Source of the DNA: an uncultured Gemmatimonadales bacterium
Lineage (GTDB): Bacteria; Gemmatimonadota; Gemmatimonadetes; Gemmatimonadales; GWC2-71-9
Direction: 5' to 3'
Length of the DNA stretch: 64,000 bases
Assembly: GCA_963792265.1 (NCBI GenBank)
Contig: CAWBVP010000018.1
Coordinates: 16,841-80,840, forward strand
Each line of letters begins with the position of its first letter. Position 1 is the first letter of the stretch. Under the pieces are notes generated by a model. That model did not search any database and had not been told where the DNA came from. It worked only from the letters and a program-made list of their open reading frames with translations. The position numbers were made by a program, and so were the translations under genes. Below, in pieces: positions 7,179-60,007 of the stretch.

Positions 7179-7338
7179 GTGAGAGGTGAGAGGTGAGAGG
7201 TGAGAGGTGAGTGAGGGTGAGCTCTCGGCGCATTCGGGATCAAAGGGGATACGGTCGGTCGGCAAAACGTTGGGCGGGAGCAATCACCTCTCACCTCTCA
7301 CCTCTCACCTCTCACCTCTCACCTCTCACCTCCCACTC
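7179..7338. repeat. inverted heptamer arrays: (GTGAGAG)n left arm, 62-bp spacer, (TCACCTC)7 right arm
   Basis: Read directly. 7179-7221 is GTGAGAG x4, then GTGAGTG, then AGGGTGAG. 7284-7332 is TCACCTC x7. Confidence 0.95.
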
Positions 7339-25479: not shown

Positions 25480-27067
25480 CTAGCGTTTCACCTTGAGGTC
25501 TGCCAGCACATCCGCCGCGGCCCGCTGGCCGGTCTCCACGGCGCCGTTGAGATAGCCCTGCGAGTCGATCGACGTGTGCTCGCCGCAGAAGTGGCAGTTG
25601 TTGGAGCGTCTGGTATTCGAGCCGGCAAAGCGGGTGTACTGGCCCACTCGCCAATAGGAGTAGGCGCCCCGGCTTCCAGACGTTGCTCGGCCAGTAATCC
25701 ATCGTTGCCTTGCCATTCCAACGCTTGCCCAGACCCGGAAGCACCGGCTCGATCTGGGCTAGGAATCGTCCAGCGGCCTGTTCGGCGGTCAGGCCGATTC
25801 TGGCTCCGGGTGGTGTCGCCGCCGGTGTAGTTCACCAGCAGTGCCGGAGGCGCCACCCTGGGCTCGCGCTACCTCCCAGGTGTCCTGATAGCCGGTATCG
25901 GCGTAGCTGTCGCCGTTGTTGCCGAGGGTGCGCCAGTGCCGATTGGTGAACTGGGAGATGCAGCTTGGCGTTGGCGCCGATCGGCATCTCCTTGATCGCA
26001 AACGTTTTCGGTTCCACGAATCCGGCCTTGCTGTAGTCCACCTCGCGGAGCTTGGAGAAGGGCAGGGCGAGCACCACCTGATCGGCGGTGACGCTGCGGC
26101 GGGTGCGGCCGCCGCCGAACGTCAGGGTGTAGCGGCCGTCGGAGAGGCGGGCGATCGACGACAGCGCGGCATCGGTCTCGATCTGTCCGTCCAGGGCCGC
26201 GGCCAGCCGGCTCACGATCTGATCGTTGCCCCCTCGCACATGATACTTCTCGTTGGACGGGCCGAAGATCCGGAACTGCCCGGGGCCGGAGTAACCCAGC
26301 AGGTATATAAGATTGAGCACGCTCTGGTCGTTGACTTCGGCCCCATACTCGATGTTGTAGGCGACGTCCAGCAATTGCCCCAGGGGCGAGGCGTGACCGC
26401 CGGGCACCCGGCTCTCGATCCATTGCAGGATGGACATGTGGTCGAGGGCGAATCCGGCCGAGGTATAGCTGTCGAACGTGGTGGGGTAGCTCGCGGCCGA
26501 CAGGTCTCGGTGCAGCGCCTGCCAGACCTGCTTCACCGCGTCGGTCGTCTCCGCGAAGGTCTGCCGCCGGCCGCCGAAGTAGTAAAACGGCTCGGTGCCG
26601 TTCTGCTCGGCCGACAACAGGTTGTCGAGGGAGAGGCCCAATTCCTGGGCCAGCTGGCGAATCTCGGTGTGAGCCTGGTCGATCAGCTCGCCCCCGTGCT
26701 CGGCCACCTGGGCGTCGTTGAAGGCGCCGCGGATCGACCAGCAGCGTCCGCCGAGGCGGGTGTTGCCCTCGTAGACCGTGGCGATCACGCCGGCCTGGCG
26801 GAGCCGGTAGGCGCAGGTCAGTCCGCCCAGCCCGGCGCCCACGATCGCGACGCGGGGCGCGGTGACCACCCCGAGCTTCCGCACCATATCCGGCAGGCCG
26901 GTGAGGGTGACGCCGGCAATGGCGCTCGCGCCGAGAAAGTCGCGCCGGCTGATCCGGTCCCGGGCCTGCTGCTCGAGGATCGCGTCCACCGGCTTGCCGG
27001 TGGTCACCGATTCTCCGGCGACGCGGAAGGCGTGGATCAACTGCTCGAACAGCGGGGTGTGCGCCAT
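25480..27067 (-). pseudogene. Tat-signal flavin-containing amine oxidase, at least 4 frame changes in the last approx 550 nt
   Basis: SRRDFLGASAIAG Tat motif. VAIVGAGLGGLTCAYRL...VYEGNTRLGGRC dinucleotide fold. The C-terminal pieces QFTNRHWRTLGNNGDSYADTGYQDTWEV, LVNYTGGDTT and RGAYSYWRVGQYTRFAG...CHFCGEHTS...GYLNGAVETGQRAA are scattered over the frames. Confidence 0.8.
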
Positions 27068-28410: not shown

Positions 28411-30064
28411 TCAACTGCGGAGAAACTTCCTAGCTGTGGTAAGCTCCGGCCGCTCGCCGTCACTCTTGCTCATGCGCGCCAGGAACTCCCGGTAGGCGGC
28501 CTTCGCCGCTGTTCGGTTTCCGGCCAGCTCGGCCGCCCGGGCCGCGCCGAACAGGCTCCGCGCCCGTCCCGGCTCGCGTGCGAGCGTCACCTGATAAGCC
28601 CGCCTCGCTTCGACGTACCGTCCCGCTTCCAGCAGCATGTCGCCCTCCAGCTCCCGCGCCGGCAACAGCTCGGCCGGCGTCACCGGATGCTTGTCGGTGA
28701 CCTCCTCGGTGTCCGCCGCGGCCTTGGCCAGCGCCAGCCCGCCGGCGGTGTCGCCCTCGGCAAACATCACCCAGGCTCGAGCGGCGTCCCGCTTGATCCC
28801 CGCCACCCGCGACCAGTAGGGCTCCTTCTTCTCCGCCATCTGCGCCGCGATCGAGTCCAGCGCCGCCACCTCGGCCCGAGCCGCCGCCGGGTCTCCGCTC
28901 CGGGCCGCCCCGATGGCGCGGGTGAAGCGACTCAGCATGACCGGAGTCCCCACGCCCTGCATCGGCGCCACCGGAAACTTCGCCGCCGCCGCCCAGTCGC
29001 CGGTCTCCAGCGGGATCCTCGCCGCCATCGCGGTCCGGTTGTAATCGCCCACCAGGCTCTTGCCCGCCGGAACGTCCAGGCTCTGCGCTGTCGCGACCGT
29101 CGCCCGGGCGGCGGAGTCCTGGCCCCGCTGGAGATAGGCGTAGACCGCATAGTCGAGGGCGTGAAGCACCTCGCCCGGGGGAGGGATCCCCTGGCTTTTG
29201 GCGTTCGCCACGCCCGCCCGATACGCCACCAGGTTCGACGCGATGGCCTCGTCCCAGTAGCCCAGCCGGACGAAGATGTGCGACGGCATGTGCTGCGCGT
29301 GCGGCGCCGCCGGGGCGATCCGGGCGTAGCGCCGCGCGGCGCTCAGGCCCAGGTGCGCCAGCTGCGGCGAGTCGGTGGAGTGGATGATGTAGTGGGCCAG
29401 ACCGGGATGCTGGGGATAGCGCGCGAAGAGCGGATTGAGGATGGCGGCCGCCCGCTTCTGCTGGGCGAAGGTGGTGTCGGTCTTGGGCGCCGTGGCGTCG
29501 AGCGCCAGGGCGTAGAAGGTGGCGACCTCGGTGTCCTTGGGATAATCCCGGTACACCCGGGCCATGGTGTCGGCGTAGGCCTGGAGCCGGACGGCGTTGG
29601 GTGTCGCATCGGGATCGCGATAGAGCGCGGCCACCGCCGCGATGAATCCCCGCTCCCGCGGAGTCTTCGCCGACAGCGAGGACGCCCGGGCCGCCGCCTC
29701 GGCGCCTCGGCTAAGCGCAGCTCCGGTGGGGCCGCCGGCGAAGGGATTGCCCCAGGCGTTCAGCGCCAGGCCCCAGTGCGCCATGGCACAGGTGGAGTCG
29801 GCCTCCAGCACCCGGTTGAAAGCGGCGTCGCCCTCCTCCCACCAGAACGAGTGCAGCACCGCCATGGCCCGCTCGAACCGGCGCCCGGCCTCCGGCGCTG
29901 CAGGAGACCGGAAAGGTGACCTGGCCCAGCTTGCCGAGCTGGTGAGCCTGGGCCGCGTGATCGTCGTGCTCGTGAACCTGAGCCTGGACGGGGGAAGCCA
30001 GAACCAGCACGGTTCCAACCACAACCAGAGCCAAACCCCTCGATCTCACGGCCGACCTCCGCAT
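28411..30064 (-). pseudogene. secreted TPR-like repeat protein, frameshift near 29905
   Basis: 537-aa helical-repeat ORF. The signal peptide MRRSAVRSRGLALVVVGTVLVLASPVQA (ATG 30064) is in another frame. Confidence 0.6.
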
Positions 30065-30172
30065 GCGGGACCACGGCGAAAATAGGGCGCGACAGGGACA
30101 ACCTGCACGCCGGCAACGACATCCACCAGTCCGCCAGTGAACGCCATCACTTTGCAGAGAGAGCAGAACTTT

Positions 30173-30781
30173 GCCAGGGACACGCAGATCGTCGCCAGGG
30201 ACACGCAGATCGTTGCCAGGGTCGCGCAGATCGGCGACAGGAACAGACGGATCCTCGCCCGAAACTGCCAGATCCTCGCCAGGCTCAGCCACCGACCTGC
30301 CACGCTCAGCGTGATCGGCGCCAGACTCAGCGTGATCGGCGTCAGACTCAGCGTGATCGGCGCCAGAGTCAGCGTGATTGCCGCCAGACTCAGCGTGATC
30401 CCCGCCAGGGTCAGCGCAGATCCCGCCAGGACTCAGCGCTGATCCCCGCCCAGGGACAGCGCAGATCCGCCGACAGCGAATTGCCAGAGTCCGCGTGATC
30501 GGCGACCGATTGCCAGACTCAGCGTGATCGGCGCCAGACTCAGCGTGATCGCCGCCAGACTCAGCGTGATCCCCGCCAGGGTCACGCAGATCTCGTCGAG
30601 CGCCGCAGACACGCCAGACCAGCATGAACTGCGCCAGACTCAGCGTGATCCCGCCAGACAGCTGATCGGCGCCAGACAGGTGATCGCCGCCAGAGCTCGC
30701 CGTGATCGGCGCCAGGGACAGCGTGATCGCCGCCAGGACAGCAGCGTGATCGCCGCCAGGACTCAGCCACGGATGCCCGGG
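30173..30781. repeat. degenerate 21-bp tandem array (consensus GCCAGACTCAGCGTGATCGGC), about 27 units
   Basis: Parsed by hand. Units 1-12 (30173-30424) are exactly 21 bp. Later units are 18-32 bp. By my count 23 of 27 units contain GATC. Confidence 0.95.
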
Positions 30782-30792
30782 AGTAAAGCGCT

Positions 30793-32184
30793 TCATTCCT
30801 CTGGCAGAAGCTCCTTGCGCGAGTACAACACCCCGTTCCGGATGACCGAGCGCACCTGGCGCGCGTTGTGGATGTCGGCGGTGGGGTCGGCGTCGAAGAC
30901 GACCAGGTCGGCCCGCTTCCCGGTCGCGATCGAGCCGACCTCCCGGTCCAGCGCCATCGCTCTGGCCGCGACGATCGTCGCTGAGGCGAACACCGCTCCC
31001 GCCGGCATGCCCGCCTGTTGCATCAATTCCATTTCCCGGTAGACGCTGGGCCCGTGCGCCGTGCCGGGATTGCCGGCGTCAGTCCCCATGGCAATCGGGA
31101 TGCCGGCCCGGTACATCCTCCGAAGGTTCGCCATCGAAGTGGTCATGAGGCTCGCGGCCCGGGGACTGGTCCAGAAGGCGTTCCCCCGCTTTCGGAGGCT
31201 GTCGGGCAGCACGGTCTCCAGCTTGCGCCGGGTGACCGGATCGACGCAATCGAGCGGATAGCGCAGCCCGGGTGATCGGCCGGCAAAGACATCCGCGTAC
31301 CCCTCCAACACCGTCAAGGTCGGGATCACGATGGTGCCGTTCCGCCGGGCCGCCTGAATGAACGCCGCATCCACGTTGCCCTCTTCCACATCGTGTACCA
31401 GAACGTTGGCTCCGGCTTCGAGCGCGTCCTTGGCACTGGGAAGCTCGGTGGCGTGGACGATCAGCCGGAGTCCCGCCTTCCGGGTCTCGTCTCCCGCCGC
31501 CATCAGCATGGCCTTGGCATGAGCATGCAGCGAGTCGGGGACCTGGATGTACCAGACCTTGATCGCCTCCGCGCCGCCGGCCTTGTGCTCCCGCACCGCT
31601 CGGCGCACGGTCTCCTCGTCGGACATGAACACGAACTGGCCCATCATCTGGGGGTCCACGGTGATGGTGGCGAGTAGCGGACCAACCGCGACAACCCGGG
31701 GCGCGTCGCCGGCCGAGCGGGTCCTGCGGTCCAGATCGTAGGTCCAGGGGAATCCTCCGACATCGAACACGGTGGTAACACCGCTGCAGAGGTTTGCCCG
31801 GTGAAAGCGTTCGGGGTGTTGCTCCAGGGAGCGGACGACCGAGTCGTACGGATACTGGGCCCGGAGATCGATGGCGTCCGGACGGCCGTCTACCCATCCC
31901 GTCTGTCCGTAATGCACGTGAGCATCGATGAGCCCGGGTCCCAGGTAACTCCCCCTCAGGTCCACCGGCTTCGAGCCGGCCGGGCGGGGACACGCGGTCG
32001 CCGTGCCGGCGCAGACGATGCGGCCATCGCGAATAACGACGCTCGCATCCGGTATGGGATGGCGGTTCGGATTGATGAGAGTCGCGTGCTGCAGCGTCAG
32101 CGCGGGTGCGACCTGCGCCGTGGCGCCGATCGCGGTGGTGAGAAGGAAGCCGAGCACCGCCAGCAATCTCCAGCTCTGGTGCAT
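30793..32184 (-). CDS. secreted amidohydrolase-family metal-dependent hydrolase
   Basis: Signal peptide MHQSWRLLAVLGFLLTTAIGATAQ. GLIDAHVHYG metal-binding motif. C-terminal ADLVVFDADP. Confidence 0.85.
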   Translation of the reverse strand: MHQSWRLLAVLGFLLTTAIGATAQVAPALTLQHATLINPNRHPIPDASVVIRDGRIVCAGTATACPRPAGSKPVDLRGSYLGPGLIDAHVHYGQTGWVDGRPDAIDLRAQYPYDSVVRSLEQHPERFHRANLCSGVTTVFDVGGFPWTYDLDRRTRSAGDAPRVVAVGPLLATITVDPQMMGQFVFMSDEETVRRAVREHKAGGAEAIKVWYIQVPDSLHAHAKAMLMAAGDETRKAGLRLIVHATELPSAKDALEAGANVLVHDVEEGNVDAAFIQAARRNGTIVIPTLTVLEGYADVFAGRSPGLRYPLDCVDPVTRRKLETVLPDSLRKRGNAFWTSPRAASLMTTSMANLRRMYRAGIPIAMGTDAGNPGTAHGPSVYREMELMQQAGMPAGAVFASATIVAARAMALDREVGSIATGKRADLVVFDADPTADIHNARQVRSVIRNGVLYSRKELLPEE

Positions 32185-32242
32185 AGGGAAACTCGAATGG
32201 GGAAGGCAGTCTGCGGGTCGCGATTGCCAAGTCACAAGCGGC

Positions 32243-37735: not shown

Positions 37736-38202
37736 GGTGAGCAGAGAGCTGTGAGCTAGTGGGTCTAGGGTCTAGGGTCTGGGGTCTAGGTCGAGGGAAG
37801 ATGCCCGTTGGCTTGGCAGGTAGCGCCTGGTGGAGTTTCTGGAGCATGCCGCGTATAGAGTGGATCTCAGCAACAATGCCCGACGCAACCGGTGACTCTA
37901 GGTATCGCAGGTCACCTGCCAAAAGCAGTTCGCATTCAAGTTCTGAGAGCGAGCCCAGACTGATTCGAACGAAGCGTCTGAGCTCGATGTCTCCCATGCG
38001 ACCGCAACCTTCTGCGAGGTTTGCTCGACACCGACACAGCTGCACGGCGCATTTGAGAGCTGAGGCCATACCGCTCCGCAGAGGGGAAAGTGCCGGTCAG
38101 TTTGTAGACTGAAGCCACCAGCTTCTGGCTCTTCTGCCAGACTTCGAGCTTCCTGAAATCCCCCACCATCTCCCTCCAGCTTGCGTCTCCGACAATCTTC
38201 AT
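37674..38202 (-). pseudogene. four-helix-bundle protein (23S rRNA intervening-sequence protein / Avd-like family), frameshift near 38035, 3' end uncertain
   Basis: DFRKLEVWQKSQKLVASVYKLTGTFPSAERYGLSSQMRRAAVSV continues in another frame as ANLAEGCGRMGDIELRRFVRISLGSLSELECELLLAGDLRYL. As read, the ORF runs through the left arm to 37674. The other two frames hit TAG inside the arm. Confidence 0.8.
37756..37795. repeat. left arm of cassette: GGGTCTA GGGTCTA GGGTCTG GGGTCTA GGTCGAG
   Basis: Read directly. The heptamers occupy 37761-37795. Confidence 0.95.
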
Positions 38203-38252
38203 TTCTCGAGACTAAAAGCATTAATGCTCTCACCCAAGTCGGATCATTTTTG

Positions 38253-38290
38253 CGCTAGACCCTAGACCCTAGACCCTAGACCTCACCTCA
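38253..38290. repeat. right arm of cassette: TAGACCC x3, TAGACCT, then CACCTCACC
   Basis: Read directly. 38255-38282 is the reverse complement of the left arm. Confidence 0.95.
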
Positions 38291-59930: not shown

Positions 59931-60007
59931 AGTAAGAGGTGAGAAGTGAGAGGTGAGAGGGGTGTCAACCTGATCCTCTCGCCTCTCACCTCTCACCCCT
60001 CACTCGC
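59931..60007. repeat. imperfect hairpin built from GTGAGAG-type heptamers
   Basis: AGTAAGAGGTGAGAAGTGAGAGGTGAGAGGGGTG, 10-nt loop, CCTCTCGCCTCTCACCTCTCACCCCTCACTCGC. The right arm contains the TGA stop (60000) of the upstream gene. Confidence 0.9.

Follow-up and report, generated by a model that had tools for sequence, protein, structure and literature searches.

Plasmid centromeres are long, spacer-free arrays in which a short binding motif recurs in helical register and a nucleoprotein filament is formed, as in sopC of F (12 units of 43 bp), parC of R1 (10 units of 11 bp) and pSK41 (4 units of 20 bp). Mycobacterial interspersed repetitive units (MIRU) lie between genes, and the ends of their open reading frames (ORF) can overlap the flanking genes (PMC3184786). 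The Vibrio cholerae oriCII contains six GATC-bearing 12-mers whose phasing is functionally required (PMC4551981). Here we describe an array of 21-bp units at positions 30173-30781 of a 64,000-nucleotide stretch (the window) of contig CAWBVP010000018.1 from an uncultured Gemmatimonadales bacterium. The array makes up essentially all of the intergenic DNA before a conserved gene for a TPR-like secreted protein in one sub-clade of uncultured Gemmatimonadales, and we consider the chances about even that this clade-conserved, non-coding minisatellite is under constraint as DNA, in the form of a phased motif array or of curved upstream DNA.

The general features of the array are those of intergenic minisatellites and variable-number tandem repeats, namely head-to-tail units without spacers and whole-unit length change between lineages. 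It can be filed under bacterial intergenic minisatellites, with its unusually strict register as the distinctive trait. These same features, and the intergenic position, are shared with MIRU. On the overlap with flanking genes that MIRU can show, the picture is mixed: in the window an ORF starts at an ATGA overlap and continues in frame into the TPR-like gene, whereas no co-oriented gene abuts the array in the related contigs L136 and L141. The array differs from MIRU in unit length (21 bp vs. 40-100 bp) and in distribution, since its 34-38 copies are gathered at one locus, whereas MIRU occupy 40-50 loci with a few copies at each. Dispersal was not apparent, with one locus in 64 kb and a second locus type seen only in the related contig L139. 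Unlike in MIRU, no terminal or internal inverted repeats were noted, three strongly diverged unit types and higher-order repeats were present, and the copy number was equal in two samples.

Like iterons (the oriCII 12-mers and the 22-bp repeats of R6K), the array consists of direct repeats that recur about 21-22 bp apart on one helical face and contain GATC. However, the 30 or more copies exceed the three to seven of iteron arrays five- to ten-fold. The neighboring genes encode an amidohydrolase, the TPR-like protein, TANGO2 and an HbpS-like protein and include no initiator, and the surroundings of the array lack a DnaA box, an AT-rich region for unwinding and a switch in GC skew. GATC is not conserved across the array family, and no similarity to plasmids or phages was detected when the clean array of L141 was compared to them by BLAST. 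A scan of a viral collection gave one chance match and no array. The likeness to plasmid centromeres lies in the long spacer-free arrangement and the short motif in helical register, but no partition genes are near the array, its context is chromosomal and metabolic, and it is tied to the upstream region of one gene. Our literature search turned up no report of arrays of this kind in Gemmatimonadetes and none of 21-bp repeats with GATC.

Structure and conservation of the array

The 21-bp tandem array is real. Tandem Repeats Finder reported arrays with periods of 21 and 42 bp, and also of 150 bp, covering 30163-30767, which agrees with the GATC-rich 21-bp units described by the initial annotation of the window. 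The array contains 23 GATC sites within 609 bp (about 38 per kb) compared to 7.7 per kb in the remaining window. The consensus 21-mer, with up to three mismatches allowed, matched 10 times in the window (0.01 in shuffles), every time within the array, so the proposed search for the 21-mer found no match elsewhere in the window and the array is a single locus there. A scan of genome contigs with a 16-mer, which was too short a query, gave 120 single chance matches and no array. The units abut directly, head-to-tail, without the unique spacers of similar length that characterize CRISPR, and that identity was rejected here as it had been in the initial annotation. GGCGCC, which had been said to form often at unit junctions, occurs only five times.

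The array totals about 34 units in the window, and homology with relatives shows that decayed units extend to the TPR-like start codon at 30064. Between 30187 and 30397, the nine GATC sites closest to the TPR-like gene lie at intervals that are all exact multiples of 21, in accordance with the earlier description of the first units as exactly 21 bp long. Past 30419 the spacings become irregular (Table 1). Alignment of this distal half to L136 and L141 requires gaps, the counterpart part is exactly 21-bp-phased in both, and its irregularity has no counterpart in either assembly. This irregularity is either peculiar to the window genome or due in part to errors in the consensus. Certain variants in the distal half, among them two neighboring 18-bp units, look real; others may be consensus errors, and the irregular units are partly suspect because the arrays of the relatives keep exact register. 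Between the in-register block and the TPR-like gene (30065-30172), the window has one 2-base and one 1-base deletion relative to both relatives.

The indel noise noted earlier in the window is real. Four genes are frameshifted compared to their homologues, encoding the TPR-like protein, a family 9 glycosyltransferase, an amine oxidase and a 23S_rRNA_IVP protein. With roughly one frameshift in every 2 kb of coding sequence, noise in a long-read consensus seems a better explanation than pseudogenes. The frameshifts lie at about 29893, about 25040, 25700-25950 and about 38000-38070, respectively. The one in the TPR-like gene is a +1 shift caused by an extra G near 29893 (CCGGAGG, where a relative has CCGAGG), and the true start of this gene is MRRSAVRSR... 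at 30064.

Homologues of the flanking proteins were labelled Gemmatimonadales by their sources. The contig L136 is from a metagenome-assembled genome at NCBI, and L141 and L142 are from two Joint Genome Institute (JGI) samples. The TPR-like protein of L136 is 88% identical to that of the window, and its gene order is an HbpS-like gene with a terminator hairpin, the array, the TPR-like gene and TANGO2; the amidohydrolase found upstream of the array in the window is absent. L141 and L142 are the closest relatives (90% identity of the TPR-like protein) and have the same array with yet another upstream flank. The array is not an assembly artefact since three related metagenome lineages have a homologous array. 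In a second sub-clade, L137 has seven 21-bp units before the TPR-like gene, L139 has about one unit there and a 23-unit array beyond TANGO2, and L138 and L140 have no array. The comparison of copy number called for by the initial annotation thus gave about 34 units in the window, 36-38 in the whole arrays of relatives and none in L138 and L140. Position-weight-matrix tests assigned the units of L139 to the same family in the same orientation and those of L137 to the same family in inverted orientation, and in both tests none of 300 column-shuffles reached the observed score. The family has been kept through three differing upstream flanks, one inversion and one relocation. The L139 copy indicates, therefore, that the array family moves, or seeds rearrangements, within the TPR-like/TANGO2 neighborhood.

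Three unit types were distinguished: type A, TGGCGSCGATCACGCTGAGTC; type B, TGGCAAGTTCGTGGCTGTCCC, which lacks GATC; and type C, TGACAGAGATCTGCGCGACCC. They are arranged in higher-order repeats, which measure 147 bp in L136 and 126 bp in L139, and the most decayed units lie at both edges of the array. In L141 the register is unbroken over 38 consecutive units (379-1177) up to the start codon, with all 20 GATC sites at one phase modulo 21 and a TG.C register that continues to the start codon of the TPR-like gene. L136 has 26-27 units in exact register and all 18 GATC sites at a single phase, and all 23 units of L139 start with TGAC. The features common to the whole family are the 21-bp period and CTGRC at the unit start, and the persistent motif positions are CTGRC, G-T-C around GATC, and a single G and a single C farther along.

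The TPR-proximal 300 bp or so are orthologous unit for unit among the window, L136 and L141, with the proximal block of the window corresponding to L136:4304-4560 and L141:857-1092. The sole length difference between the two relatives in this part is one whole 21-bp unit, which is missing from L141 but present in L136 and the window. The arrays of L141 and L142, which are independent samples, agree except for one mismatch and do not differ in copy number. The earlier suggestion of a hypervariable minisatellite therefore holds in part: the array is a minisatellite that changes by whole units, but it is not hypervariable because its proximal half is orthologous across 14-20% divergence and two samples differ by one mismatch.

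Over 301 aligned sites, 61 substitutions but not one small indel separate L141 from L136, and the proximal block of the window differs from L136 by 40 substitutions over 257 ungapped columns. The relatives' arrays hold 23-38 diverged units each, all in one register. Motif positions vary in 16% of the orthologous columns compared to 34% of the columns elsewhere (Fisher p = 0.002). Array divergence was 0.14-0.20 compared to 0.18-0.23 at third codon positions of the TPR-like gene, and the array sequence overall is nearly free to change because this amounts to 70-90% of the third-position value. The conserved-spacing pattern fits, although it does not prove, a constraint at the DNA level on the spacing and on a few bases.

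Coding potential of the array

The initial annotation left room for a heptad-repeat protein whose frame was broken by indels. In such a case, the product of the minus-strand GDHAESG frame (whose equivalent in L139 is PDADVVD) would be an acidic repeat of beta-roll type, which would stand alone or extend the TPR-like protein at its N terminus, and the exact register in multiples of 21 would reflect a folding constraint on seven residues. Four of the six frames are open across perfect units, as had been annotated; they read ARLSVIG and QTQRDRR on the plus strand and GDHAESG and ITLSLAP on the minus strand. In L141 and L139 no stop interrupts the GDHAESG frame anywhere in the array, and in the window, L136 and L141 this frame continues in phase into the beginning of the TPR-like gene. 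The previously noted ATG at 30796 does overlap the amidohydrolase stop codon at 30793-30795 (ATGA). An ORF beginning there crosses the whole array uninterrupted by alternating between two open frames before it runs in frame into the TPR-like gene start, and the probability of an open path through about 10 frame switches under random indels is about 0.02-0.07. The SG-x-D-H-A-x heptads of the array frame resemble the SG-x-N-H-x-V heptads of the heptad beta-roll ice-binding repeat (PF21300, LbR_Ice_bind; grass antifreeze), and scores against this family were 31.9 bits for the GDHAES frame of L141 and 29.7 bits for L139, at or near the cut-off of 30 bits.

The substitution pattern argues against translation. 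Substitutions were uniform over the codon phases of the array (11/13/16 for the window vs. L136 and 27/19/15 for L141 vs. L136), whereas the flanking genes showed a third-position excess (113/32/41 for the TPR-like gene, 14/9/50 for TANGO2 and 25/59/14 for the HbpS-like gene). Copies of the higher-order repeats also differ uniformly over the codon phases. The pN/pS ratio ranged from 0.4 to 1.4 over all six frames of the orthologous array blocks and was 1.06-1.16 in the GDHAESG frame, which lacks a third-position excess. The frames are unbroken in the clean relatives, yet none is conserved: the ITLSLA and GDHAES (sense) frames each have a stop in L136, the ARLSVIG (antisense) frame has a stop in L141, and the GDHAES frame has no start at the beginning of the array in L141. 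The sole open sense frame of L139 has an invariant T at the third codon position and varies at the first two (CCT, GGT, GCT), which is the reverse of coding behavior in a genome with 83-98% GC at the third positions of its genes. The 361-codon ORF of the window has 50-60% GC there compared to 83-98% in real genes, and the consensus unit has 57% by hand count. The family is inverted in L137, an N-terminal extension would leave the signal peptide internal, and relatives exist without such a product.

Protein searches were consistent with this pattern. A three-frame chimeric query against 5.8 billion protein clusters matched only a false N-terminal extension of P0128, an exhaustive HMMER search of 1.8 billion representatives returned only unrelated low-complexity heptad proteins, and Pfam and NCBIfam gave no family match for the called array ORFs. 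The window ORF scored 19.3 bits against PF21300, below the cut-off; periodicity inflates such scores, and the array differs from PF21300 in its atypical codon usage and in having no conserved ORF or purifying selection. The resemblance is most likely a by-product of periodicity. A heptad-repeat protein is very unlikely, and the array is, on this comparative evidence, judged to be non-coding.

Constraint and alternative explanations

The array probably originated by amplification of a 21-bp segment and grew by duplication of single units and of blocks of 6-7 units, seen as the higher-order repeats of 126-147 bp. Since then it has probably been passed on by vertical descent together with the TPR-like gene, and its neighbor on the upstream side has changed. 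Any action would be exerted as DNA, by presenting the same short motif on one helix face at least 30 times, a phased geometry that would suit cooperative protein binding or coherent intrinsic curvature upstream of the TPR-like promoter. Several points weigh against such a constraint. No array precedes the TPR-like gene in L138 and L140, and L139 has only about one unit there, so the array is dispensable. Divergence near the synonymous rate means that any constraint is weak. Gene conversion among units, instead of selection, could slow the motif positions, and together with unit-wise satellite dynamics could yield much of the pattern. The neutral expectation for small indels is uncalibrated on other non-coding DNA of these genomes. 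The distal half of the window array is out of register, and its two adjacent 18-bp units are unlikely to be sequencing errors. A search for promoter and terminator consensus sequences found none, and no binding protein, methylase or transcription start is known for the array.

Several of these points also favor a neutral fossil, that is, a minisatellite formed by ancestral slippage or unequal recombination whose units diverged past recombining and which persists by inertia without any function. Its register would then reflect only the whole-unit mode of change of such arrays and the lower frequency of small indels compared to substitutions. The decayed edges, homogenized center and higher-order repeats are typical of satellites, the lineage is generally rich in short tandem repeats, and the three relatives without the array show no obvious consequence. 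We regard this explanation as less likely than not, but as a strong rival. It accounts poorly for the absence of small indels next to 61 substitutions, for the lack of any register slip among the diverged units of the relatives and for the depletion of variation at motif positions. In compact genomes subject to deletional bias, 700-800 bp of functionless DNA would have had to be kept through flank changes, an inversion and a relocation. A more specific form of the constrained reading is a functional nucleoprotein scaffold, in which at least 30 CTGRC(...GATC) motifs in exact two-turn register would be bound cooperatively by a putative Gemmatimonadales protein that controls expression of the TPR-like gene or is itself titrated. 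We consider this form unlikely as stated. If it were true, binding would occur on one helical face and might be methylation-sensitive in this sub-clade, and the resulting filament or loop would fix the expression level of the adjacent secreted TPR-like protein or switch it, unless the array served to titrate the binder. The array would then be the chromosomal counterpart of plasmid centromeres or iteron arrays, adapted to gene control. The inverted copy of L137 suggests that its orientation would not matter.

The protein-binding or methylation-phased array proposed in the initial annotation gained partial support from the two-turn phasing of GATC sites, which is strong in the relatives, and from the slower motif positions, but this support does not extend to GATC itself across the family. 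A methylation-phased array would have about 20 GATC sites on one helical face marked by a Dam-type methylase and read by a methylation-sensitive binder, giving an epigenetic switch or a titration site as in the GATC-bearing 12-mers of oriCII. Phased, methylation-dependent binding of RctB to GATC iterons is established (PMC4551981). The arrays contain 18-23 GATC sites, and unit positions 8-13, which hold the GATC core, are among the slowest-changing. However, GATC occurs in none of seven units of L137 and in one of 23 units of L139, both of which keep the 21-bp register, and type B units lack it altogether. GATC is part of the founder unit of one sub-clade and does not define the family. The window as a whole contains 513 GATC sites compared to 513 expected from a Markov model (ratio 1.00), so the motif is neither enriched nor avoided. 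The suggested check for a Dam-type methyltransferase revealed no candidate with an adenine-methylase motif (DPPY/NPPY) within the 64-kb window. SeqA- and MutH-type readers are not known outside Gammaproteobacteria. Methylation phasing is thus highly improbable as the basis of the array. With the same kind of model, CTAG was strongly under-represented in the window (35 observed vs. 80 expected, ratio 0.44).

Genomic neighborhood and significance

The coordinates of the array and of adjoining features are given in Table 1. By gene order, the array belongs to the upstream region of the TPR-like gene and not to the amidohydrolase, and the amidohydrolase is an insertion in the window relative to L136, the one relative with a comparable upstream flank. 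The two closest amidohydrolase homologues with readable contigs have other neighbors and no array, and searches for exact protein matches to the amidohydrolase and TANGO2 of the window found none.

Table 1. Features at and around the 21-bp array (positions in the window)
Feature	Coordinates	Strand	Remarks
TPR-like secreted-protein gene	28411..30064	-	Homologues of 540-550 aa; signal peptide MRRSAVRSRGLALVVVG...AQA; array linked to this gene in relatives
Spanning ORF, judged not a gene	29711..30796	-	361 codons; begins at the ATGA overlap
Decayed units and immediate upstream region of TPR-like gene	30065..30172	-	2-base and 1-base deletions relative to L136 and L141
Proximal in-register block	30173..30418	-	11-12 exact 21-bp units of types A, B-like and C
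Distal half of array	30419..30781	-	Amidohydrolase side; type A units (CTGGCGSCGATCACGCTGAGT, minus strand), irregular, with 17-58 bp between GATC sites
Amidohydrolase gene (Amidohydro_1)	30793..32184	-	463 aa from internal ATG; upstream of array only in the window genome

Several observations concern the flanks of the array and its copies in relatives. In the window, the amidohydrolase region (30793-32235) lies between the HbpS-like gene and the array, where L136:3832-4008 contains a terminator hairpin and decayed 21-bp units. Amidohydrolase homologues of 83-87% identity occur in unrelated contexts (L121, L123). The distal array edge coincides with a rearrangement breakpoint in all three genomes that carry the array at this location. 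At L137:6055-6201, the array before the TPR-like gene is inverted relative to the gene, and gene callers make a 90-residue N-terminal extension of it (P0158). The 23 units at L139:4780-5380 form the 126-bp higher-order repeat with only one GATC and adjoin 65 bp left over from a small membrane-protein gene, the intact form of which lies at L136:7082-7489.

Other identities for the array were considered and rejected. No Rfam match was found, and folding energies did not differ from those of shuffled sequences (z = 0.14 on the minus strand and -0.78 on the plus strand), which does not indicate a structured RNA. A replication origin was discarded with no GC-skew switch, a GC content of 0.66-0.69 and the only near-DnaA box 16 kb away. 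The remaining candidates were assessed by eye: type B units (TGGCAAGTTCGTGGCT) resemble a sigma-54 -24/-12 element, but the unit closest to the gene does not preserve this likeness, GGA occurs in a minority of units and does not suit a CsrA-type sponge, G-runs are spaced too widely for a G-quadruplex, the heptamers of a unit are too dissimilar to be three 7-bp sub-repeats, and a Chi-like CTGGTGG in decayed units was dropped.

A metagenome scan for two spaced TCAGCGTGATC cores retrieved 12 unrelated arrays with 20-22-bp units, some of them iteron-like or coding, and none belonged to the family. The 12 matches are within a few-fold of a rough chance estimate. Unrelated 20-22-bp arrays with this common core, from diverse metagenomes, were L126, L127, L129, L131, L132 and L135. 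Units of L131 contain a DnaA-box-like TGTGGATAA, L126 is AT-rich with TTATCAACA, and both look like iteron-type origins.

Short tandem repeats of another kind were observed in the window and in related contigs. The arrays (GGGTCTA)x4.3 at 37761-37790 and (CTAGACC)x4 at 38255-38282 are inverted tandem heptamers around an insert of about 470 bp with lower GC content, which encodes on the minus strand a frameshifted 23S_rRNA_IVP/four-helix-bundle protein (PF05635, E 5e-33). The region 37761-38282 looks like a small cassette bounded by repeat-built inverted ends. Heptamer and 8-9-mer arrays also form inverted pairs, with long potential hairpins, at 7179-7336 and 59931-60003 of the window; examples are (GTGAGAG)x4.7 and (CTCTCAC)x7.6 separated by 70 bp and (AGAGGTG)x3.7 adjoining (CCTCTCA)x4.1. 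Similar arrays were found at L121:1414-1447, L141:1-45, L137:12789-12838 and L138:500-524 and 679-703, and they recur at gene ends in related contigs. The inverted heptamer pairs seem to be a lineage-wide habit and are possibly terminators or mobile-element ends.

The 21-bp array has practical consequences for the annotation and assembly of these genomes. Gene callers turn it into spurious proteins, including ORFs of 134 and 237 aa and false N-terminal extensions of 77-90 residues on the TPR-like protein (P0128, P0158). Short-read contigs break at the array, as in L142, which starts inside it, and long-read assemblies may gain consensus errors there. The array also offers a clean, natural case of a satellite with higher-order repeats on a bacterial chromosome. 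Should the constraint on its register be real, an uncultured phylum that has been little studied would have a phased cis-element of unusual length, and its 30-38 sites could provide a handle for finding the protein that binds it.

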